A stretch of DNA of 30,178 bases from a virus, in UHGV virus genome UHGV-0251015; one strand, 5' to 3'. Both the position numbers and the translations under genes were made by a program. Positions 1 through 30,178 of this stretch are shown in pieces; the first letter of the stretch is position 1; each line of letters begins with the position of its first letter. The notes under the pieces were generated by a model. The model saw only the letters and a program-made list of their open reading frames with translations. It made no database searches and was not told the origin of the DNA.

Positions 1-841
1 AACAATCGACGATTGCTGGAAAGGCTGGGCCATACTCCTCCGGCAGAAGCAGAAAAAGCTTATTATGCTTCCATCGGAAACGATGATCTGGCAGCCTGAG
101 TTCACAGATAAAACACTCTCCAGGAAACCCGGGGCGGTTCATGATTGTGTCGGAGATTTTTCCAGTGATTTCGCCAACAGATGACTTCAGTGATGACCAT
201 GATTTACTTAGCTCATCGACAGTAGATTCCCTGGCTCCGCCATTGGTTATTTGCGGATCAACTCCTACATCTCCCTGTGACTTATTGTTATCCGTTGGCT
301 TCTGTTCTGACTGAGATCCAGAGAGAATAACTTCCATTTGCTGAATGACCTCCTGAAAATCAAGATAAACCGTCAGAAGAGTAACCCCTTTTTGAGAGTT
401 AACTTCGTAATAGTGGTCAACAAGGTCGAAACTCTCCAGAGTTTCCTTTGGCGTTTCAATATCGTATGTTTTTGCAGAGGACAGCATCGTTTTGATTGTG
501 TTCAGCGTGCTGTTCTGGCTTGTGAATGTGAGATCGAAAATATTCGGGATGTTGCCGGAAAAACCAGTAAGACCATTTACGATGATTGCACATCTTACTC
601 TGGCGGGTTCTTTAACTTTGTTGATGGACTGGTATTTCCCTTTCTCCACCGGAGCGTTTGTTATTTGCGCCCTTCCGCTTGGCTGTACGGATGCCATACC
701 ACTGAACTCAAGAGCAACCTCGCCAGTTTCCCTGTCACGAATCACATACTGAGGATGCAGAACGCTGTCGATGATCGAAAGCGGAGAGCCACCACCGATA
801 GCATTGAATATGTCTGCTGTGTTTAAATCGATTATGTTCAT
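1..841 (-). CDS. Hypothetical phage protein, 3'-truncated by window edge; possibly virion/tail-associated given position after the tail genes
   Basis: ATG at 841-839 with GGAGAG upstream; my translation (MNIIDLNTADIFNAIGGGSPLS...) stays open to position 1. Not in ORF track because no stop lies in the window. No family recognised. Confidence 0.4.
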   Translation of the reverse strand, partial: MNIIDLNTADIFNAIGGGSPLSIIDSVLHPQYVIRDRETGEVALEFSGMASVQPSGRAQITNAPVEKGKYQSINKVKEPARVRCAIIVNGLTGFSGNIPNIFDLTFTSQNSTLNTIKTMLSSAKTYDIETPKETLESFDLVDHYYEVNSQKGVTLLTVYLDFQEVIQQMEVILSGSQSEQKPTDNNKSQGDVGVDPQITNGGARESTVDELSKSWSSLKSSVGEITGKISDTIMNRPGFPGECFICELRLPDHRFRWKHNKLFLLLPEEYGPAFPAIVDC

Positions 842-891
842 CTACTCTCCATTAAACAAAAACCCAGCCGAAGCTGGGTTTAGTGAATTGG

Positions 892-1110
892 CTAGTTATC
901 AAAAAGTCCGTACGTTTCTTCTTCAGGAGTAAGGGGAAGAATCTCAATTCTATCTATAGATACCTTTTCAATGTACCCATGAGGTCTACTTAAAATTAAA
1001 GCTCTCTCATGCCACAGAACTCCAAGAATGTGATACCTTCCAGCATCGCCTTTTACCCTGGCTCTTCCTTTGATTCTTGGCGGCATAATGCCATATTTTT
1101 TCTTTGCCAT
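892..1110 (-). CDS. Hypothetical small basic protein (72 aa)
   Basis: ORF track; start shares its T with the stop of the upstream antirepressor gene (TAATG-type junction); no family recognised. Confidence 0.4.
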   Translation of the reverse strand: MAKKKYGIMPPRIKGRARVKGDAGRYHILGVLWHERALILSRPHGYIEKVSIDRIEILPLTPEEETYGLFDN

Positions 1111-1838
1111 TATGCAACATTACTCCCATGAACCAGGTGTTGTAGTGCTTTAACGCCTTCAGAATTGTAGCGGAATGCTTCCACCTGTTTGCTGGAATGC
1201 GCAGATTTATCCAGGAAGAACTTCCCGTACTGCTCAGTTTTGAGGTTGTTTGCGTTAGCAATGCGACCAATCTTGTTTGCCGTTACTCCAAGCTGCTCTG
1301 CGACCTCCCCTGCTGAGTAGTAATGCTCTTCTATTGCCGGAAGAGGTATTGCATTAAAACCAACGAGCGGGTTGATTATACTTGCTGCCGCTGTCTGCTT
1401 TGCCTCCGGCGCAAGATTTGGCATCAGATCGAACAGATTGGTAACAGCTTCAACCGTCATTTTCAATGTTCGCGCTTGACGATACTCAACAAGTCCACTC
1501 GACGATTTACCGCTTTTAATGTGCGCTTCTTGCATCCTTTCAAGTTGGTCTACAAGTGAGCGGCGAACAGCTTTAGATTCACGAGCAGCCACTCGAAGGG
1601 CTTGCTTAATTGACATAACAACTTTTTCAGAAGTTGTCTTGTTTGATTTTTGAACTACGAAAATTTCGTAGTGCTCACCTTCAAGTTCATCCTTAATGCG
1701 TGCAATAAAGTCGTTATTTCGAACTTCTTTTTCCCCGCACTGTCTACGAGCATGATTGACCATCTCTAACAGGTACTGGCTATCAATGGTTTTATCCGTG
1801 ACAACGGATCCGATGTTTGCTACATTCTTAAAAGTCAT
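1110..1838 (-). CDS. Antirepressor-like protein with KilA-C-type C-terminal region
   Basis: ORF track 1110..1922; I prefer the internal start MTFKN at 1838 because AAGGA sits 7 nt upstream, but 1922 (stop/start overlap with upstream gene) is possible. C-terminal YSAGEVAEQLGVTANKIGRIANANNLK resembles phage antirepressor C-terminal domains (recall). Confidence 0.5.
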   Translation of the reverse strand: MTFKNVANIGSVVTDKTIDSQYLLEMVNHARRQCGEKEVRNNDFIARIKDELEGEHYEIFVVQKSNKTTSEKVVMSIKQALRVAARESKAVRRSLVDQLERMQEAHIKSGKSSSGLVEYRQARTLKMTVEAVTNLFDLMPNLAPEAKQTAAASIINPLVGFNAIPLPAIEEHYYSAGEVAEQLGVTANKIGRIANANNLKTEQYGKFFLDKSAHSSKQVEAFRYNSEGVKALQHLVHGSNVA

Positions 1839-1921
1839 TAGGCATTCCTTATGTGGTAGTAAGGGTGTGACATAGGCCGCCAGCAGCACACTGGCGGTTT
1901 TTTTCACCGCCAGATGCGTCA

Positions 1922-2845
1922 TTAATACAGATGAACAGAAGGCGGCAATTCTTTATTCTTAAGCCTTATCCATGCGGAAAGATTTGTTGGTCCGTCTGGC
2001 TCATTGATATCAACATCTCGTGTGTGGTTGATTAAAACGTCTCTCGCCGTTCCGATAACATACGAGAACTCATGACCGTAGTCGTAGCATCTGCCGGAAT
2101 AGTTCGATTGAATTTGTTTTAGCGCCGGATACAGTTCGCGGAATAATGCCTGTGAGCGGTTGGCATAATCCCATAGCCATACAAGGCTGTTTGCTTCTTT
2201 TGCAGAAAGCTCGTTGACTTTCCTCTCTTGTTTGCCGATGAACTCTCCTTCAAGCGGAACGCGAGCAGCAAGTGACAGTGCTTCGGTAAACTGCTCCTCA
2301 CTGATTTCTTTGTACGAACATCCAAAATGGGATTTCAGTGACGACCACATGGTGATCATCGCCTTAGCCTGTTTTTCTTTTGGCAGAGACTGACCGCGAC
2401 TCATGACGAGTTGTTTAATGGCTTCCTGCTGTTCAGTGGTAATTTTACCCGGCAACGCCTTTTTAGCTTTGCGTGGATTAACCACATGGCCTTTAGTCCA
2501 GTATTCGTAGAGCACATCGTCACACTCTTCCTGATACTGGATTACCTTGTCGCGGATTTCAGGGCGGACTTTGTTTGGTTGAATACTTGAAAGCCAAGCC
2601 GCAAATTTACGAAAGGCAAGACATGTCATTAACTGTTTACCGCCAGCAGAAGGTATTTCGATTTCCGAAATACCTTTGGCAAACCTTTGTTTTAACTTAA
2701 CAAATTGAGCAGCCCAAACCAGCCCCATGCCTTCAACAACAGGCCTCATAGGAACATAAGGCTCATTGTTAATTCCAACCAAAAACAGATTTGTTCCGTG
2801 GAATGGTACATTGATAGTAGATACCGCTGTTGCTATACTTTTCAT
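1922..2845 (-). CDS. Antirepressor (Ant-like), immI-type module
   Basis: 307-aa ORF immediately downstream of an Arc-like gene; N-terminus resembles P22-type antirepressor N-terminal domain by recall; P22-like gene order. Confidence 0.55.
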   Translation of the reverse strand: MKSIATAVSTINVPFHGTNLFLVGINNEPYVPMRPVVEGMGLVWAAQFVKLKQRFAKGISEIEIPSAGGKQLMTCLAFRKFAAWLSSIQPNKVRPEIRDKVIQYQEECDDVLYEYWTKGHVVNPRKAKKALPGKITTEQQEAIKQLVMSRGQSLPKEKQAKAMITMWSSLKSHFGCSYKEISEEQFTEALSLAARVPLEGEFIGKQERKVNELSAKEANSLVWLWDYANRSQALFRELYPALKQIQSNYSGRCYDYGHEFSYVIGTARDVLINHTRDVDINEPDGPTNLSAWIRLKNKELPPSVHLY

Positions 2846-2846
2846 G

Positions 2847-2916
2847 TCAATATTTCCCGATCAGATTTGTTGATATAGAAGCCTCGCCAGTTCCCGCTGT
2901 CGGGGCTTCGTTATTT
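2847..2916 (+). ncRNA. Candidate sar-like antisense RNA spanning the arc-ant intergenic region
   Basis: Plus-strand TTGATA-17nt-TATACT promoter at about 2812-2840, ending at the ant start codon; plus-strand hairpin GAAGCCTCG/CGGGGCTTC then GTTATTTTT at about 2877-2916. Coordinates +/-2. Confidence 0.4.
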
Positions 2917-3078
2917 TTAGAGAGCATTCCGCATTTTCTCCCGGTACTTCAACCACCAAGCAAGTCCCTGAACCAACACTGAGTTTTCTGACATCCCCTC
3001 TTCCTTGGCGATGCGTTTCACCTCCTCCTTAAAACGGTACGGATACCGAAGAGTTGTCTTCACTTCATTCTTTTCCAT
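2917..3078 (-). CDS. arc: Arc-like ribbon-helix-helix repressor (53 aa)
   Basis: Below ORF-track size cutoff; my translation MEKNEVKTTLRYPYRFKEEVKRIAKEEGMSENSVLVQGLAWWLKYREKMRNAL; AAGGAG 6 nt upstream of ATG; matches the Arc beta-strand/helix pattern by recall. Confidence 0.6.
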   Translation of the reverse strand: MEKNEVKTTLRYPYRFKEEVKRIAKEEGMSENSVLVQGLAWWLKYREKMRNAL

Positions 3079-3100
3079 TGATCACTCCTTTTTACGTAAT

Positions 3101-3161
3101 GGCATTATGCCTTGAAAGCAATATGCCATCATTGAATATAAATAGCAATATGCCATCATTG
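3101..3161. promoter_or_regulatory. Divergent promoter/operator region between arc and mnt: palindrome GGCATTATGCC plus two exact 17-bp direct repeats
   Basis: GGCATTATGCC at 3101-3111; GCAATATGCCATCATTG at 3118-3134 and 3145-3161; a candidate plus-strand promoter TTGAAA-18nt-ATATAA (3112-3141) overlaps the first repeat. Confidence 0.45.
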
Positions 3162-3180
3162 TTTTTTTTGAGGTGATGTT

Positions 3181-3501
3181 ATGGCTGAAAAACAGGTTAA
3201 AGATTACGAAAAGTTTGTTGTGCGTTTCCCTGACGGGATGAGGGACGCGATTGCGGAGAGAGCCAAACGAAACGGGCGCTCTATGAACTCAGAGATTGTG
3301 CAGATACTGGAAGATGCCTTGAATGCAGAAAATACTCTTGGGGAAATAGCAGACAAAATCAACAGCGTCTCGGTTCCGCTAAATGTTGATGCGCTAGTTC
3401 AACTTCAAGCCCAAGTGATCGCCATGCAAAAAGAAATACAGGAAAAATTCAGAGAGCAGAACGAAAAGTTGAGAGAACTGCTAAACAAAAAACCCACCTG
3501 A
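3181..3501 (+). CDS. mnt: Mnt-like ribbon-helix-helix repressor with C-terminal coiled coil
   Basis: FPDGMRDAIAERAKRNGRSMNSEIVQILEDAL is an Arc/Mnt-type RHH signature (recall); GAGGTG RBS; transcribed divergently from arc. Confidence 0.65.
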   Translation: MAEKQVKDYEKFVVRFPDGMRDAIAERAKRNGRSMNSEIVQILEDALNAENTLGEIADKINSVSVPLNVDALVQLQAQVIAMQKEIQEKFREQNEKLRELLNKKPT

Positions 3502-3516
3502 CGGTGGGTTTTCATT
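3491..3516. terminator. Bidirectional intrinsic terminator between convergent mnt-like and lipoprotein genes
   Basis: Perfect hairpin AACCCACC-TGAC-GGTGGGTT (3491-3510) flanked by A-run upstream and T-rich downstream, so it can terminate both strands. Confidence 0.6.
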
Positions 3517-3535
3517 ACATATCAATTAATACCTA

Positions 3536-4198
3536 TTATCTTCTGATCGCTTTACGCCAATCCCCGGATAATCTAGATATATCCCAACACGACTGAACAA
3601 CTTCAGTAAAATACTCTCTATCCATTGGCGCGATTCCTGGCCAATCTTTCATTCGATTTACTAACGCATCTTTTGGTATGCCCTTCTTTTGATTCAAGGA
3701 GGTTTGTTCGCAAATCGCCCTTACCGCAGCATCATATTCAGCCTGAGCATAATGATTCACACTAAGAAGCACAGTGTATGCTGTTGAAAGTGAATTCATG
3801 GAAGATGAGAGTTCTTTCTTCCTCCGACACTCTTTATCAGCAAGGCATTTCTCTTCAGCTAGTTTTTTTTCCGCTCTCTTCTTGTTATTGAAGGCGTTAA
3901 TCCCAGAATCATAAGCGTTAGCCCATACATTGTAATAACACTCTCCATCCCAGCCGCATTGCGTGGTATCTGGAGCGACAAGAATCATCCCTGTTTTTTT
4001 TAGATAATCATTTTTAAGCCTATTAACAGTCCATGACTCTCCGCTTTTTGCTACATACTCTTTATCACCGAATTCGCTTTGCTGTTGCTGAGTGGTTGGT
4101 GGGGTTATCGAACACCCGTACAATAAAGAAGCAGAAAGAATCAAGAGAAAGTGTGATTTTATTTTTCTTACACATTCACCACGATTAATTAATGCCAT
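3536..4198 (-). CDS. Putative lipoprotein (220 aa), accessory/moron gene of unknown function
   Basis: Basic N-terminus, hydrophobic stretch and LLYGC lipobox-like motif; Cys-rich; visibly AT-rich; GGAG RBS; terminator directly downstream. No family recognised. Confidence 0.6.
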   Translation of the reverse strand: MALINRGECVRKIKSHFLLILSASLLYGCSITPPTTQQQQSEFGDKEYVAKSGESWTVNRLKNDYLKKTGMILVAPDTTQCGWDGECYYNVWANAYDSGINAFNNKKRAEKKLAEEKCLADKECRRKKELSSSMNSLSTAYTVLLSVNHYAQAEYDAAVRAICEQTSLNQKKGIPKDALVNRMKDWPGIAPMDREYFTEVVQSCWDISRLSGDWRKAIRR

Positions 4199-4396
4199 AC
4201 GGCGACTCCTGTCAATTTAGCATGATATACAACGGATTACCTTTGAGTTGTTCATCATATTAACGAACACAATAACTTCAGGTAAACACCTAATCCTCCC
4301 TCATCATCATGCATGAAGAAAAAACACGTATTTATCATACATGTAGCATTAATGACTGTTACCTCCAATTGGTTGGCAAAAATCATCACTGACAGG

Positions 4397-4645
4397 CTAT
4401 GATTTGAATAAGTGCTCATGCCGTGCTGATAGCTCTACTAGCAACTTCATCGCTTCTACCGCGTCTGCCGAGGTTGATTTAGGTGACGCAGCAATGGACC
4501 TGAGTGTGCTCTCTAAACTACACAGGGATAGAGAATATGCCAAATTTAGCTTTATCACGGCGGCTAAGTCTGTTTCATCATGGTTTACGAGTTTGTCTGC
4601 TTCTTCTGGGGTATACCCACTCGCAACCAATCGTGCGTGCATCAT
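4397..4645 (-). CDS. Hypothetical small protein (82 aa)
   Basis: ORF track; helical charged composition; preferred over the overlapping Ser-rich plus-strand ORF 4404..4655. Confidence 0.35.
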   Translation of the reverse strand: MMHARLVASGYTPEEADKLVNHDETDLAAVIKLNLAYSLSLCSLESTLRSIAASPKSTSADAVEAMKLLVELSARHEHLFKS

Positions 4646-4729
4646 CTCTTTGTAAGAGTGTTCAATTGCTTTTATGATAATAACCTATTGGTAATAATTC
4701 CAGGATTAAAAAACTCTTGATAGTAGTAA

Positions 4730-4969
4730 TTAATTTCCATCAAGAGCAGCAAGCAGCGAAGTGCGCAACTTTTCTTGAGTCATTTTCAACTCTCCGCTCT
4801 TTGCTTGCCTGCGAAGATCATCGACCACCATTTTGGTGAATTCTGTAGGGGTAATCTCACTCTCGATAGAGACCTCTCTCCCAAGAAGCAATGATATCCC
4901 ACCCAAAATCAGGCTAAAGGCATTACCAATATTTTTTAACGATGGAGTGTAAACGATGGAAAGTTTCAT
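4730..4969 (-). CDS. Hypothetical small protein (79 aa) with one hydrophobic segment
   Basis: ORF track; hydrophobic AFSLILGGISLLLG then charged C-terminus; first gene after the tape measure. Confidence 0.4.
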   Translation of the reverse strand: MKLSIVYTPSLKNIGNAFSLILGGISLLLGREVSIESEITPTEFTKMVVDDLRRQAKSGELKMTQEKLRTSLLAALDGN

Positions 4970-5024
4970 TTTTACCGTCCGACTTCAGTTAACGGATACA
5001 AGCACAGGAAACGTTACAAGGTGA

Positions 5025-6839
5025 CTAAGGCATTGCACTAGAAAATGCCGCGTTTGTTGACACCCGGCTAACTTGCTGATTGACACTTCTGGTAAGAGCA
5101 TCAACTGTTGTCGGGTTACTGTTAACAACAACCGTGCCAATAGTTGTACTGCTGCTACGACTGTTGTCAATTTTTGATGTTGTCTGGCTTGGTGTTGAAG
5201 CGATGCGTTGCTGCTGCTGATAGTAAGCCAGCGTCTCGTTTTCTTTTGCATTAAGAGCGGCGCGAATCTTTGGCACATATTCTCGCGTCTCTTTCGGTAA
5301 GGTGTTCCAGTATTTGGATGATGGTGAATCAAACCCGGTACTGGATATGTATTTTAACTTTTTGTCTACATTGCCCATCCCCCAGTTGTAAGCCATCAGC
5401 GCATGGTTAACATTGCCTTTATAGTGCTTTAGCAAATCCCTCATGAACCTTTCAGCAGCAGCGCGAGATTTTACCTCATCAAGACGCTCATCAATCCCAT
5501 CACCGACCTTTAACCCGTACGCTATGGCAGTATCCTTCATGAACTGATACGGACCAACAGCACCTTTCGGGCTGTAAAGTTTTTTACCACCACTCGATTC
5601 CACCTCACGAATGGCATCAAGAAGAGAATCCATGCTTACAGGCTTTACTCCGTCAGGGAGAGGGATATCTGGCTGAATGTTATTGCCATAAATCTCATCT
5701 CCCCTACGCCCAAAATCGGTGTCAAACCCCATGCTGCGCATGGTATCTCCAAGTTCACGCTTAGAGTAATCAAACGATCCTTTAGCTGCACCCTCAATGT
5801 TTTCCCTGTCATTGTAGAGGTACAAACCATATGCTATTAACCCAGCCAACCATGGAGGAAGGGCACCGCCTGTAAGTTTGCTTCCTACATATGCTGCTGC
5901 CAATAGCTTCAGAGCCTCTTCCGCGCCACCAACTGCCTTTGTGAATTGCTTCGTCATATTCCCGGCGTCATTGAAAAAGCCAATGATGTCGCCATGATGT
6001 TTCTCAATCCAGGAACCAAAAGCCTTCATCCCGTCAATAACGTCTGGAGCGAATGCCATGGCTAAATTTTGCTTTAATCGGGAAAACTCTGAATCAAGTT
6101 GACCAAGAGTGGCGGCAACCTTCTCCTGCTCTTTTACCTGCTGTGCGCTAATACGGGATTTCTTTGTTTCTGAATCGACAAGCTGCTTAAGTTCCCCTGA
6201 TTTTATTTTAGCGGCATCTGTCGGATCGAACCCTGCGGCCGCCATCACCTGCATCAGGTTTTCTTGAGAATGAGTCTTGCCATAGCGAGAAAACTCAGCA
6301 AGAGCCTTGTTTGGGTCACCGAGCTTATTGATATCTAATCCGGTACGAGCGCCAAGAACCAGCAAATTTTGGGCAGCGCCAGTAAGCCCCCCCATAACAG
6401 TTGGATCGGCAATATTTGCCAAAGCCATTCTGGCATTCCCAGAAGATGAAATGAACGAGTCACCGTTAAGACCAGCCTGGCGAAATCCCCGCTGAACACC
6501 AAACATCTTATTAACATCAGAACCGAAAAACTTGGCCTGTTGACTGGCTCTCACGATTTCGTTGGCAGTAGATGTAAAAAGTTGCTTGATTCCATACAAC
6601 CCGGCGCCAATTCCCAAAAATCCAGCGGCTGCGGTTGTCACGTTGCGGAAAGCTGAAACAGCGGTTTTACCGAACCTCTCCGTTTCCTGCCGCTGTTTTT
6701 CAAGTTCCTTTAGCCTTTCCTTCTCAGCCCTGGAAAGATCTTTGTTTAATTTACTAACTTCATCTTTTACTTTCCGTTTTCCATTCAGGAATTCATCGGC
6801 CTTAATTGTGACCTTGTAGGCCAACTCATTGATAATCAT
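5025..6839 (-). CDS. Tail tape-measure-like protein with lytic transglycosylase (SLT) domain
   Basis: N-terminal coiled coil, central Gly-rich hydrophobic segments, C-terminal LDAIREVESSGG...GAVGPYQF motif typical of SLT domains (recall); position after chaperone genes. Confidence 0.7.
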   Translation of the reverse strand: MIINELAYKVTIKADEFLNGKRKVKDEVSKLNKDLSRAEKERLKELEKQRQETERFGKTAVSAFRNVTTAAAGFLGIGAGLYGIKQLFTSTANEIVRASQQAKFFGSDVNKMFGVQRGFRQAGLNGDSFISSSGNARMALANIADPTVMGGLTGAAQNLLVLGARTGLDINKLGDPNKALAEFSRYGKTHSQENLMQVMAAAGFDPTDAAKIKSGELKQLVDSETKKSRISAQQVKEQEKVAATLGQLDSEFSRLKQNLAMAFAPDVIDGMKAFGSWIEKHHGDIIGFFNDAGNMTKQFTKAVGGAEEALKLLAAAYVGSKLTGGALPPWLAGLIAYGLYLYNDRENIEGAAKGSFDYSKRELGDTMRSMGFDTDFGRRGDEIYGNNIQPDIPLPDGVKPVSMDSLLDAIREVESSGGKKLYSPKGAVGPYQFMKDTAIAYGLKVGDGIDERLDEVKSRAAAERFMRDLLKHYKGNVNHALMAYNWGMGNVDKKLKYISSTGFDSPSSKYWNTLPKETREYVPKIRAALNAKENETLAYYQQQQRIASTPSQTTSKIDNSRSSSTTIGTVVVNSNPTTVDALTRSVNQQVSRVSTNAAFSSAMP

Positions 6840-15039: not shown

Positions 15040-15858
15040 TCATTTTCTATCTATCCCAGGGATAACAGGAGACCACGTACAACGGCAGTTGATAGCCTCT
15101 CCCGGCAGCACCCATTCACCATCAAGATACAGCCCTTTATCGAGGTCGAACTCTTTACCGTCAGCTTTCACATGGGATGGCCTTGGCTGCTTCCCGGCGT
15201 GTGAGTGACGCCAGATTCCTTTGGTGATGCCTAACTTCTTCTGCCGTTCAGACTGAATTACCGCTGTAGCTTTGTTGTTCTGATCGCGTGCGATCGTCTC
15301 AGCGCGTCTGCGTGTAATGCCATATCGCTTAACCAGTTCATCAGTGAGATAGCCAAGGTCACGACCACGGCTGACAGACTGCATGACTATCGTCTCAACC
15401 TGTGTGTGATAGTGTTCAGGTATGGATTTAATCAGGTTGACGTTCTCGTTAACGACAGCCTGCATCACGTTCTTAAGCTCGTCATTCATTGTGAACTTAA
15501 CGGTAAATCCGCCAGCCTTTAACGCTGAGTGTAACGAAACGTCGGTGTTGCGCAGTGTCTTATCAACGAAGCGATCAGCCAGTTTCTTAGCCAGTTCATT
15601 GAATTTATGCTCCCACTGCTTGCCTAGTCTGGACAATCTGCGCTTTAACTCATTCGCGGGACTGGAATCCATCGCCATGTTGTTTTTGTATGCGCCCTCA
15701 AGCCAGTATCGGTATGACTTATCCATCTCCCTAACCAGTTTGAGAAGCTCAGAGCGATACCACTCATGAACTCCGGCATTAGCTCTGACTGGACGAAGGG
15801 TTTTCCGGGTCTTCGAATCCTTCTTCGACGGACTCGTTTTCGTGCTCTTCTTCGTCAT
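15040..15858 (-). CDS. Head morphogenesis protein (minor head protein family)
   Basis: Position immediately after portal and family resemblance by recall; 80-nt overlap with portal suggests the true start may be internal. Confidence 0.7.
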
Positions 15859-17314
15859 ATTCAGATTCCATCATGTGGTATGGGCTGGCCTTATCCGACT
15901 GGCGCATGCTTCTTATTGCATCAAGGTCGAATACGCCAGCTTCAGCATAGTTCTTGTCAGCCTCAGACTGATGTTTCATGATCTCGGCTTTCTCTGCTTC
16001 TGTAAGCTCGTACAGCGGCAGGAATTCAAAATCAATGTCAGGGTCAATCTCGCCAAATTCATTCAACTGGATAACATCCAGCACTGTTTTCAGCGGCACC
16101 CTGAACAGATTCTCCTGCATGGCGTGTATTGAGTCATAGAAGACGCGGATTTCGCCATCAGATGAAGCGTTTAGCCCGTTAGGAGTGATGCCAAGGAGCT
16201 TAACCAGAGGAATGCTTGATACCGATGCCATTTGTTCCTGCGCTTGCGCCTGAAGAGCATCAACTCCGGACAGACTTGTCACAAACTGGAAGAATTCTTC
16301 TCCATCCTTATCAATAAGGAACATTCCGCGATTGTCGCGAACCTTATTGAATAGCTCGGCACGCATAAACAGGTTTGGGTCTGCAATTCCAGACAAGGCA
16401 TTCTGCATGTTCGTCTTCAGCCCATAGACCACAAACGAATGAACCAGATCGCTAACGCTGTCACGTGTTCTCAACCAGTTCTGCACGTATGGCTCTGCCA
16501 TCTGACTCAGCGACAAGCCGCCGAAGTTGTACGCCGCTTTGAGAATGTCTGGCACCTGGCGAGAAATCATTGTCAACATGCGACTGGCGTGAACCGTGCG
16601 CCCCATGACATACCATTCAGATGGATTGAAGAAGTCAGGGCTTAGAGGATTGTCAGCGTTATACACGCCCGGGTAAGTCCACATAGCCTCGATAACGCGG
16701 AAACCATTCAGGCTTCCTTTGGTAATCTTGCGCGGGCTGATATAGAGCTTCTTATCCAGTTCGTCGGGAACCAGCCAGGCTGAGTTACCGCTTGGCGTCT
16801 TCACGTCGATATAAATCTGCCCGCGCCCGAAGTAACCGTCATGTTCCGCTGCCTCGCGAAACTTCTCTCGCACTCTGAAACGCTTTAATGCTTCGTCAAG
16901 CTGGCGAAGTTTATCGGCCTTGTCGTCACCATCGTCTTTACCTACATGCTTCAGCTCAATCCATTTTCGCGTCATCTCTTCTGCTATCGTGCCAGTAATC
17001 TTGCGATACTCCGGCAACTGAGCAAGTTGAGACAGATATGGGTAGCCAGGAAATCCACCGTAGCCATATGCGGTGATGTTTGCTGAGTTAAGGTAACTGT
17101 ACGGCGTGGAGTCCATCGCCAGAGCTGACTCCCCAATATGTTCAGGAATAACGCCTGGCGGGGGTACGTATCTCTCAATTCTACGCAATGCCTCGCCTTC
17201 ATTTTTAATTCGCTCCTGTTCGCTAATAATCGCAAGAACATTCGCCAGAGACATTGGCTGTTTCGCCTCTTCTTTCTGAGGCTCAGATTTTTTCTTTCTC
17301 AAAAAATTAAACAC
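15779..17314 (-). CDS. Portal protein
   Basis: 511-aa protein directly after the large terminase with acidic C-terminus; canonical position. Confidence 0.8.
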
Positions 17315-29150: not shown

Positions 29151-29431
29151 TCAGGCCTCGAAGAATTCGCCGTTCTTCGGGGCTTTTTCTTTTGTCAGCA
29201 TTCTGGCTACTTGCTTAGCCAGTTCCGCCAACTCCTCGTCTTCAACACCCCATTCCAGCACAGCCAGAAGCATGGCCATCTTTGGGATAAAGCTGTCTTT
29301 CCATCGCGAAATTTGCGATTCATTAATCCCTAACGCGTCGGCAACCTTTCGCTGACCACGTACAGCAATTCGATTCAGGATGTTGCTTGTAATTGCATTC
29401 GCTTTCTTGCGAGTACTTGTAAGTTGCATAT
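29151..29431 (-). CDS. cII: CII-like transcriptional activator (divergent from lambda CII)
   Basis: Start placed at MQLTSTRKK (ORF track extends to 29489) because the upstream leader matches lambda up to CATATG; conserved core SQISRWK...[14 protein letters not shown]. Confidence 0.8.
29156..29193 (+). terminator. oop-like antisense terminator overlapping the cII 3' end
   Basis: Plus-strand hairpin CCTCGAAGAA-TTCGCCG-TTCTTCGGGG followed by CTTTTTCTTTT; opposite strand to cII. Confidence 0.45.
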
Positions 29432-29508
29432 GTAAGTATTTCCTTAGATAACAATTGATTGAATGTATGCAAATAAATGCATACACCATAGGTGTGGTTT
29501 AATTTGAT

Positions 29509-29540
29509 GCCCTTTTTCAGGGCTGGAATGTGTAAGAGCG
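29509..29540 (-). promoter_or_regulatory. nutR (boxA CGCTCTTAC and boxB GCCCTGAAAAAGGGC)
   Basis: Read directly on the minus strand just downstream of cro; matches lambda nutR by recall. Confidence 0.8.
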
Positions 29541-29547
29541 GGGTTAT

Positions 29548-29757
<210 letters not shown>

Positions 29758-29765
29758 TTAGTACA

Positions 29766-29842
29766 TGCAACTATTATCACCGCCAGAGGTAAAATAGTCA
29801 ACACGCACGGTGTTAGATATTTATCCCTTGCGGTGATAGATT
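29766..29842. promoter_or_regulatory. Right operator OR1-OR2-OR3 with divergent promoters pR (minus) and pRM (plus)
   Basis: OR1 TATCACCGCCAGAGGTA 29775-29791; OR2 CAACACGCACGGTGTTA 29799-29815; OR3 TATCCCTTGCGGTGATA 29822-29838; pR hexamers on minus at 29796-29801 and 29773-29778; pRM TAGATA/TAGATT on plus. Confidence 0.9.
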
Positions 29843-29845
29843 TAA

Positions 29846-30178
<333 letters not shown>

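Follow-up and report, generated by a model that had tools for sequence, protein, structure and literature searches.

The immI region of phage P22 comprises mnt, the promoters Pmnt and Pant, arc, sar, ant, and the terminator t_ant. In the P22-like phages epsilon34, CUS-3, HK620, and Sf6, the corresponding "ant morons" are variable, independently regulated cassettes of the late operon that often include mnt, arc, and ant (Villafane et al. 2008, PMC2629481). The ant gene is also carried by 126 of 279 Stx phages (PMC8136144). Induction of the Stx phage phi24B is efficient with the help of ant and weaker when ant is deleted, and superinfection immunity is unaffected by the loss of the gene (PMC3064807). 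As cited in the same paper, Susskind and Botstein (1975) reported that lambda CI is inactivated by P22 Ant. Antirepressors of the Gifsy type are encoded outside the immunity region, and their products bind and inactivate a CI-type repressor and act across prophages (PMC3121763). The rules established for P22 do not always transfer, since mnt expression is undetectable in lysogens of the P22 relative Kapi1 (PMC12922286).

Here, we describe a locus in the virus genome UHGV-0251015. All coordinates refer to the window, that is, the whole stretch of 30,178 nucleotides that was analyzed. We consider it probable that the segment from 860 to 3516 is an immI-type second immunity module, carried by a myovirus-tailed lambdoid prophage that has lambda CI as its primary repressor.

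Results

An immI-type module in a contractile-tail gene cluster

The module spans positions 860 to 3516 of the window, the left edge at 860 taking in ORF72 and the operon terminator. The features below include the sar-type antisense RNA, ORF72, and the operon terminator, none of which figured in the original prediction.

860-881, minus strand: operon terminator (AAACCCAGCTTCGGCTGGGTTT followed by a T-run), from a terminator scan; ends the leftward ant operon
892-1110, minus strand: ORF72, 72 amino acids; phrog_4977 (E = 1e-51), of unknown function
1110-1838, minus strand: ORF2, 242 amino acids from the ATG at 1838; the longest open reading frame reaches 1922
1798-1906, plus strand: candidate antisense RNA "sar2," opposite the ribosome binding site and start of ORF2
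1922-2845, minus strand: ant, P22-type antirepressor, 307 amino acids
2811-2839, plus strand: Psar-like promoter TTGATA-17-TATACT (10/12 matches), inside ant codons 3 to 12
2847-2920, plus strand: sar-like antisense RNA covering the ant ribosome binding site, with its terminator in the arc-ant spacer
2917-3078, minus strand: arc-like, 53-amino-acid RHH protein; first gene of the ant operon, with the length and position of P22 arc
3079-3180: divergent control region, 102 bp, with three related GGC-core repeats
3181-3501, plus strand: mnt-like, 106-amino-acid RHH repressor with β-strand KFVVRFP and a helical C-terminal half unlike that of P22
3489-3512: bidirectional terminator (AAAACCCACC/GGTGGGTTTT), an inverted repeat at the end of mnt-like; right boundary of the module

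The original prediction had named four open reading frames, all of which are present where it had placed them, and had read them as a P22 immI-like second module inside a lambda-immunity prophage; homology, synteny, and regulatory elements agree with this. Gene order, orientation, and spacing are those of the annotated P22 immI region, all five open reading frames are intact, and the operon terminator and the annotated P22 t_ant have the same core, ACCCAGCTTCGGCTGGGTTTTT. The same arrangement was found in nine independent contigs, E. coli prophages and Stx phages contain copies of the module with 94 to 100% identity, and at the right-hand side, the similarity of related loci to the window ends at 3511 to 3516. 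Judged by its sequence, the segment from 860 to 3516 contains a complete homologue of P22 immI, or ant moron. Homology of every part to P22 immI and conserved positions of the regulatory elements are observed, and together with synteny they strongly support the core reading of a P22 immI-like module in a lambda cI/cro prophage.

The original prediction placed the module at the tail region's 3′ end; it actually sits in the middle of the contractile-tail cluster, with the tape-measure/SLT gene on one side and the baseplate genes on the other. In related prophages, this site is occupied by quite different cargo, which includes a LexA-family regulator that replaces mnt. The primary immunity region is located at the far end of the window.

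29548-30178: primary immunity region of the lambda type, with cro, OR1 to OR3, and the start of cI
29548-29748, minus strand: cro
29775-29838: OR1 to OR3
29849-30178, plus strand: first 110 codons of cI, the gene being cut by the end of the window

Its assignment to lambda cI/cro was confirmed: Cro matches the lambda protein at 66 of 66 positions and CI at 108 of 110, OR1 to OR3 are present, and the 752 bp from 29427 to 30178 are 99.5% identical to lambda DNA.

The RHH pair and its control region

The Mnt-like protein is a solid RHH protein encoded divergently from the adjoining ant operon. It matches the Pfam family Arc (PF03869) with an E value of 1.6e-19, its RHH domain is 47% identical to that of P22 Mnt, and its matches in a PDB sequence search were AmrZ (the best), Mnt (1mnt), and Arc. 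The C-terminal half has no homology to the tetramerization domain of P22 Mnt. The Arc-like protein scored 17.5 bits against the Pfam Arc family, below the cutoff of 20.4, and matched PHROG 582, "Arc-like repressor," with an E value of 1.6e-10; BLASTP identity to P22 Arc was 38% over only 29 amino acids (E = 3e-5). It contains the RHH signature GMSENS. Among the Arc/Mnt RHH and antirepressor domains looked for by HMM search, PF03869 was thus recovered in Mnt-like and P22_AR_N and P22_AR_C were recovered in Ant; Arc-like remained under the Pfam cutoff, and ORF2 yielded no domain.

Within the divergent control region, repeat analysis and inspection for promoters gave the following elements.

3099-3111: site A, palindrome ATGGCATTATGCC
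3117-3134 and 3144-3161: repeats B1 and B2, both AGCAATATGCCATCATTG, an exact 18-nucleotide direct repeat in two copies
3148-3143 (−35, TTGCTA) and 3125-3120 (−10, CATATT), minus strand: candidate Pant
3132-3137 (TTGAAT), 16-nucleotide spacer, 3154-3159 (CATCAT), plus strand: candidate Pmnt

An 18-nucleotide direct repeat occurring twice together with a related palindrome in 3079 to 3180 is far beyond chance, and the GGC core is found in three of three repeats. Both candidate promoters are weak matches below the threshold of the promoter scan, and the candidate −35 element aligns with the consensus TTGACA of other alleles. The three repeats overlap the −35 element, the −10 element, and the start of the candidate Pant, a putative weak promoter. 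A search of 1018 to 5118 for a LexA box (CTGT-N8-ACAG, with at most one mismatch) found none.

Comparison of approximately 88 related loci revealed that the repeats change with the β-strand class of the Mnt-like protein: KFVVRFP loci have the repeat ATGGCAT, and KFNLRFP loci have GGTGSCA under any of three Arc types. Loci with an identical Arc-like strand differ in the control region. The repeat sequence follows the Mnt-like strand class and not the Arc-like allele, which is new from this analysis. No operator for the Arc-like protein could be assigned by comparing loci with the same Arc strand. The palindrome GGCA-N3-TGCC (3101-3111) is present in most KTTLRYP loci but missing from loci L076 and L083. 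The SFQLRLP loci, compared in the same way, had no common motif.

Ant and its sar-type antisense RNA

Ant contains the domains P22_AR_N (E = 1e-39) and P22_AR_C (E = 5e-29), both above the Pfam cutoffs. It shares 56% identity with P22 Ant over the full length, rising to about 89% in the final 109 residues, and its identity is 94 to 95% with the Ant proteins of Stx phages and 88% with that of CUS-3; a PDB sequence search with Ant gave no match. Its target range is uncertain because the N-terminal half has diverged from that of P22 Ant. With the P22 protein as precedent, lambda CI may be a target.

The Psar-like promoter is the best promoter match in a scan of 800 to 4400 and occupies nucleotides 7 to 35 of ant, as does the annotated P22 Psar. 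The sar-like RNA aligns with P22 sar along its entire length. In a permissive local Rfam scan, it matched RF00262 over the full model (1-68/68) with 32.2 bits and an E value of 1.7e-4, below the gathering cutoff of 43; at gathering thresholds, the whole window gave no Rfam match. The RNA is predicted to fold with a dG of −25.1 (z score, −5.1), and in 13 variants its terminator helix is 89% paired, with four pairs changed on both sides.

The ORF2-ORF72 cassette

Between ant and the terminator, the operon continues with ORF2 and ORF72, the start of the latter overlapping the stop of the former by one base (TAATG); ORF72 accompanies ORF2 in most related loci. Both downstream genes of the original prediction had been taken for antirepressors. 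This is supported for Ant, given its P22_AR_N and P22_AR_C domains and its 56% identity to P22 Ant, and is not established for ORF2, which lacks an antirepressor Pfam domain and is like antirepressors in fold and partner domains only. With ORF2, a Pfam search returned nothing at an E value of ≤0.01 and only noise at ≤10, searches of NCBIfam and of PDB sequences gave no match, and no similarity to P22 Ant was seen. Nothing useful was obtained from Pfam, NCBIfam, and PADLOC for ORF2, ORF72, a 220-amino-acid lipoprotein, and two small open reading frames, and no functional test of ORF2 came to light. The protein has a two-module build: its C-terminal domain is seen elsewhere behind Bro-N, ORF6N, Rha, and KilA-N, and its N-terminal domain is seen before ANT/KilAC. 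Full-length Foldseek matches were viral antirepressor, KilAC, and KilA proteins, with E values down to 4e-10. Compared with the KilAC/ANT type (PF03374, the P1 Ant type), ORF2 thus has the two-module build and the fold similarity and gives no match to the domain model. We therefore describe it as a putative two-domain KilAC/Bro/Rha-like "antirepressor-type" protein, the likeness being in fold and domain-shuffling partners only.

Whether the module fires two antirepressors depends on this protein. That ORF2 is a true second, KilAC-like antirepressor with a repressor range unlike that of Ant is a tentative possibility, on balance unlikely. It is cotranscribed with ant, upstream of the shared P22-type terminator, and in related loci it is always preceded by a first gene of the Ant type, either P22 type or Bro-N type. 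Its domains swap with ANT/KilAC, AntA, P22_AR_N, Bro-N, Rha, and KilA-N, its family (phrog_1726) carries the label anti-repressor, and its full-length Foldseek matches are viral proteins named antirepressor or KilAC. However, these names, in the matches and in PHROG alike, are annotations and not tested functions, and most ORF2 homologues are named "hypothetical." No Pfam antirepressor domain appears even at an E value of ≤10, nor does any resemblance to P22 Ant, and the C-terminal domain resembles a DNA-binding winged helix of the MerR/Xis/Par type, which fits a DNA-binding regulator equally well.

A candidate second antisense RNA, sar2, was noticed opposite the start of ORF2, and it is the other new element proposed from the sequences compared here.

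1798-1826, plus strand: candidate sar2 promoter GTGACA-17-TACATT (9/12 matches, TG before the −10)
about 1833-1906, plus strand: predicted sar2 RNA, with an anti-SD hairpin at 1845-1865 and a terminator at 1875-1904

Its predicted fold has a dG of −27.5 (z score, −3.0), and a search of Rfam gave no family match. The promoter and terminator are kept in all ORF2 cassettes, the terminator stem of locus L070 being changed on both sides. ORF2 and ORF72 form an accessory cassette carried within the ant operon, and this cassette may have an antisense RNA of its own. A more far-reaching version, in which they form an independent mobile effector unit with its own sar-like RNA and a second repressor-targeting or other regulator whose specificity differs from that of Ant, seems to us quite unlikely. 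If it were true, a single Mnt-controlled promoter would free two separately antisense-gated effectors, and heteroimmune co-resident prophages could be woken.

Discussion

By its make-up, the module is an ordinary, widespread cassette that is already annotated in public genomes, and the working picture of immI is unchanged by these results. In a lysogen, the Mnt-like protein, made from its own rightward promoter, would be bound to the three GGC-core repeats. Since these would then cover the −35 element, the −10 element, and the start of the leftward promoter, we propose that the operon of arc-like, ant, ORF2, and ORF72 is silenced. Upon infection or loss of Mnt, the leftward promoter would fire, and Arc-like, as its first product, would shut the region down by feedback, with the sar RNA limiting translation of Ant by pairing with the ant ribosome binding site. 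Ant would bind a CI-type repressor noncovalently and inactivate it, and in this way this prophage and any co-resident one whose repressor is recognized by Ant could be derepressed. In this scheme, the promoters, the assignment of proteins to sites, and lambda CI as the target are what we infer.

A different emphasis would be that the module mainly tunes transcription of the tail cluster, or provides an infecting phage with anti-immunity, and is not an induction switch of the resident prophage. We regard this as rather unlikely. A RecA-dependent route of induction exists for lambda CI itself, so that Ant is not needed for SOS induction, and the control region is without a LexA box. In addition, the module, which has terminators on both strands, splits the tail operon at a point between its tape-measure and baseplate genes, and for the ant moron of P22, a role in modulating late read-through into the tailspike gene has been suggested (PMC2629481). 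On the other hand, both roles are compatible with antirepression, and tail synthesis can do without the module, because different cargo takes up the same site in related prophages.

It is very improbable that the module is an inert remnant brought along through recombination. In P22-like phages, ant morons show a high degree of mosaicism and have often decayed (PMC2629481), and the copy in the window is itself a patchwork when set against the related loci L001 and L005 and the Stx phages. However, its five open reading frames are intact, its promoters, terminators, and antisense RNA have been kept with compensatory changes, and the covariation of the operator repeats with the repressor indicates selection; we rejected the idea on these grounds. 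Scarcely credible, finally, is a toxin-antitoxin or partition-type system in place of immI-type repressors, which was rejected although secondary matches of the RHH pair (phrog_795/2685 and PF22513 FitA-like_RHH) bear the labels "partition protein ATPase" and FitA-like antitoxin and the VapB26 antitoxin is among the weak PDB matches of Arc-like, because neither protein adjoins a toxin or ParA gene, the synteny of the pair with ant, sar, and t_ant is complete, and the partition label is an annotation artifact that P22 mnt itself bears in its RefSeq record.

Read as an immI-type second immunity module, the locus brings together, in nature, the textbook repressor of lambda and an antirepressor of the P22 type. 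The interaction of Ant with lambda CI is otherwise known from laboratory crosses of P22 and lambda. Some wild lambda-immune prophages may thus be inducible, or lose immunity, without passing through RecA cleavage, and the fates of co-resident prophages could be coupled, including those of Stx phages with nearly the same Ant. Furthermore, the Mnt-like strands KFVVRFP, KFNLRFP, KFTVRFP, and KFM(V/L)RFP, each with its own operator repeats, are a ready-made specificity series that suits the study of target change in RHH repressors.

The Pseudomonas RHH regulator AmrZ (PDB 3qoq) has a strand of the same form, KFVVR(L/F)P, and its K/V/R triad, which the Mnt-like protein shares, reads 5′-GGC half-sites (PMC3325190); unlike the Mnt-like protein, AmrZ is a chromosomal global regulator and not a phage immunity protein, and the resemblance is limited to the RHH domain. 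Antirepressors of the Gifsy and N15/SPC32H types are likewise encoded outside the immunity region, but these proteins are small and unrelated and are controlled directly by LexA, whereas the module would rely on RHH repressors and an antisense RNA and no LexA box was found.

P22 immI matches the module in its genes and in their order and orientation. Its arc also encodes 53 amino acids, its Psar lies at the same ant nucleotides, the t_ant core is identical, the arc-ant spacer is of similar length (68 nucleotides, compared with 71 in the window), and it too is located within the late (virion) operon. In contrast, the phage described here combines a contractile tail with lambda immunity instead of the P22 podovirus body with c2, its putative operators are three GGC-core repeats and not the Omnt and Oarc sequences, the N-terminal half of Ant is diverged, and the C-terminal half of the Mnt-like protein is unrelated to that of P22 Mnt. 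ORF2 and ORF72 are extra genes between ant and the terminator, where P22 retains only a 96-nucleotide relic of ORF2. The ant morons of P22-like phages lie in podoviruses, between the ejection-protein and tailspike genes, whereas the cassette described here lies in a myovirus-type tail cluster.

The Stx-phage modules differ in their Arc-like allele (57 amino acids; strand KLNLRLP), in the Mnt-like strand (KFNLRFP), and in the repeats (GGTGSCA instead of ATGGCAT), and except for L021, the loci of this type that were examined are without ORF2 and ORF72. Like the module in the window, they are surrounded by lambdoid-phage tail genes, and in phages 2851, YYZ-2008, 1717, and phi24B, Ant is 94 to 95% identical and the Mnt-like protein 97% identical to the proteins described here.

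The immI-type module

Judged from its sequence, the module at 860 to 3516 is a point-for-point match to immI of P22, with the annotated P22 genome as the reference. The original prediction of a P22 immI-like region stands in its core, by homology and immI layout, while its second antirepressor is unproven, its location has to be corrected, and it missed sar. Its four genes were borne out by ORF listing and domain searches, which added further genes.

Features of the module and its flank
860-881: intrinsic terminator, end of the leftward genes
892-1110 (-): ORF72
1110-1838 (-; to 1922 for the longest ORF): ORF2
1922-2845 (-): ant, 307 aa; domains P22_AR_N and P22_AR_C
2917-3078 (-): arc-like, 53 aa; Pfam Arc 17.5 bits, slightly below the cut-off
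3079-3180: divergent control region, 102 bp, from which the leftward genes are read
3148-3143 and 3125-3120 (-): candidate leftward promoter, -35 TTGCTA and -10 CATATT
3132-3159 (+): candidate Pmnt, TTGAAT-16-CATCAT
3181-3501 (+): mnt-like, 106 aa; Pfam Arc E=1.6e-19
3536-4198 (-): predicted lipoprotein, 220 aa; lipobox LLYGC; phrog_26209

The ribbon-helix-helix (RHH) domain of the Mnt-like protein shares 47% identity with P22 Mnt, and the protein's sequence matches in the PDB are AmrZ, Mnt, and Arc. In related loci (L061, L066, L068, and L084), this domain is fused to C-terminal halves of at least five unrelated kinds, in proteins of 81 to 147 aa, and the part presumed to mediate oligomerisation seems to be interchangeable between loci. 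The Arc-like protein matches the PHROG "Arc-like repressor" (E=1.6e-10) and is 38% identical to P22 Arc across 29 aa; Ant and P22 Ant share 56% identity along the full length and ~89% in the final 109 residues. A TAATG stop-start overlap is possible at both the ant/ORF2 and the ORF2/ORF72 junctions, with the ORF2 start placed at the ATG at 1838 by the PHROG match, PGAP, and most gene callers.

The two phages agree in gene order and orientation (mnt <- -> arc ant), Arc is 53 aa long in both, and the arc-ant spacer is 68 nt in P22 versus 71 nt in the window. The strongest sigma-70 match in the region (TTGATA-17-TATACT, 2811-2839, + strand) spans ant nt 7 to 35, the identical ant coordinates of the annotated sar promoter in P22. 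At 2847-2913 (+), a permissive Rfam scan returned a full-length match to the sar family with 32.2 bits (E=1.7e-4), against a gathering score of 43. This region can be aligned with P22 sar, and its fold has two hairpins (dG -25.1, z -5.1); across 13 variants from related loci, the terminator helix shows 89% pairing, and four of its pairs are altered on both sides. The genes listed originally came without an antisense layer, which Rfam, alignment, and fold now supply in this sar-like RNA. The core of the P22 ant terminator, ACCCAGCTTCGGCTGGGTTTTT, is identical in the window's operon terminator, and thus, with P22 as the reference, ant and its terminator are separated in the window by ORF2 and ORF72. 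In P22 (16059-16154), a 96-nt ORF2 relic (aa 47 to 78, 59% identity) sits between t_ant and gene 9, which suggests that ORF2-type genes are long-standing companions of ant.

Control region and repeats

Three repeats lie in the control region: the palindrome ATGGCATTATGCC (site A, 3099-3111) and AGCAATATGCCATCATTG, present twice without mismatch (B1, 3117-3134; B2, 3144-3161). A GGC core is common to all of them, in the form ATGGCAT on either strand. We compared ~88 related loci, retrieved with the Mnt-like sequence and the exact Ant sequence as entry points; the architecture is kept across them, but the repeats of a locus switch together when the DNA-reading strand of its Mnt-like protein changes. 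Since many loci are near-identical, the repeat counts do not represent independent events. KFVVRFP loci, the window's type, have a mean of 2.8 copies of ATGGCAT and lack GGTGSCA, whereas KFNLRFP loci have GGTGSCA and lack ATGGCAT with any of three Arc-like alleles (KLNLRLP, KINLRLP, and KTTLRYP); KFTVRFP, KFM(V/L)RFP, and RFNIRLP loci each have separate repeats. In the informative recombinant class, KFNLRFP with KTTLRYP, the repeats track Mnt and not Arc. As independent support, the K/V/R triad of the window's strand is that of AmrZ, in whose crystal structure the triad reads 5'-GGC half-sites (PMC3325190). Because of this triad and the co-variation with the strand, we attribute the repeats to the Mnt-like protein as its predicted sites, and the co-variation is a modest new point. 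No Arc-like operator could be assigned from the related loci, and the module contains no LexA box.

The candidate leftward promoter would have its -35 within B2 and its -10 within B1, with site A across the predicted start; P22 Omnt lies at the equivalent position over the leftward start. Its -35 aligns with the consensus TTGACA in other alleles. The candidate Pmnt would overlap it in a back-to-back arrangement like that of P22; both promoters fall below the threshold of the promoter scan.

ORF2 and a candidate second antisense RNA

Two antirepressors had been proposed. For Ant this is supported by its P22_AR_N and P22_AR_C domains. ORF2 matches no Pfam or NCBIfam model, has no relative in the PDB by sequence and no similarity to P22 Ant, and nearly all of its homologues are annotated "hypothetical." An exhaustive search revealed two halves that shuffle independently: the C-terminal half is found behind Bro-N, ORF6N, Rha, and KilA-N domains, with AntA and P22_AR_N also among its relatives, and the N-terminal half precedes ANT/KilAC domains. 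Judged by these partners, ORF2 has the build of the Bro/KilA/Rha-KilAC class. Members of this class are commonly called "antirepressor," but for ORF2 this is an annotation label, and a role in binding DNA would suit the protein just as well. Wherever ORF2 occurs in the related loci, the gene before it is of Ant type (P22-type or Bro-N-type).

The ORF2 cassette boundary lies immediately upstream of its RBS, directly after a + strand hairpin and T-run, and the first 41 nt of ORF2 contain a conserved + strand promoter (GTGACA-17-TACATT). Together, these predict a ~74-nt antisense RNA of sar-like build across the ORF2 start, a candidate second one in the module (sar2, 1798-1906, +). Its parts (promoter inside ORF2, anti-SD hairpin, and + strand terminator) are kept in all ORF2 cassettes; the divergent L070 cassette has a stem altered on both sides in a compensatory manner, and its -10 hexamer retains T-A-x-A-T-T despite different encoded residues. 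No Rfam family matches sar2, and we regard this candidate as a modest new point.

Primary immunity and location

The lambda cI/cro type predicted for the primary immunity was confirmed: window 29427-30178 is 99.5% identical to lambda, with Cro matching at 66/66 residues and CI at 108/110 over the first 110.

Features outside the module
15779-17314 (-): portal-region protein, DUF1073 in most E. coli relatives
29775-29838: OR1-3, lambda match

Since lambda DNA similarity ends at ~29427, the immunity block is a clean insert of lambda type, set in an early region that otherwise differs. The cII-like gene beside it (29151-29489, -) is not lambda cII. The remaining window comprises a lambdoid early and nin region, a head module, and a contractile-tail module (E217-type sheath and tube, SLT tape-measure, Pam3_gp18, sheath initiator, and Baseplate_J). 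Some relatives of the portal-region protein (rows H35 and H36) are labelled "anti-CBASS protein Acb1 family." The ant module is not at the 3' end of the tail region, as had been thought; it occupies a mid-cluster position, with the SLT/tape-measure gene (5025-6839) to one side and the baseplate genes to the other.

Neighboring insertion and variant loci

Window 3517-4963 is a further insertion, absent in the otherwise collinear relatives L007 and L008, with the lipoprotein gene and two small ORFs (4397-4645 and 4730-4969). The lipoprotein gene adjoins the module, convergent with mnt-like; the P22 exclusion gene sieA has a like neighborhood beyond mnt.

In a sister prophage of E. coli EC16 (L005, 6749-9862), this tail-cluster site is occupied by ORF72, ORF2, Ant, and a 57-aa protein, and a 269-aa LexA-family repressor stands in for the Mnt-like one; one antirepressor operon can thus be wired to different kinds of repressor. 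In RFNIRLP-type loci, a second Mnt homologue lies directly past ORF72 (L046, 1628-1966, +) and is much nearer to P22 Mnt, C-terminal part included (SKPSPVSGYRDEEERLA...), so that these modules carry two Mnt-type repressors.

Relation to known systems

Previous work has described the "ant moron" in P22-like phages, including how variable it is (PMC2629481), and ant genes were reported for 126 of 279 Stx phages (PMC8136144). Stx-phage proteins, e.g., those of 2851, share 94 to 97% identity with the Ant and Mnt-like proteins of the window, the mnt/arc/control region is 98 to 100% identical to E. coli prophages, e.g., in strain WS4437A-1, and the exact arrangement occurs in 9 contigs. Lambda CI is reported to be a target of P22 Ant (PMC3064807); phi24B ant aids efficient induction and leaves superinfection immunity unaffected (PMC3064807). 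Coupling of prophages by trans-acting antirepressors is established for the Gifsy phages (PMC3121763).
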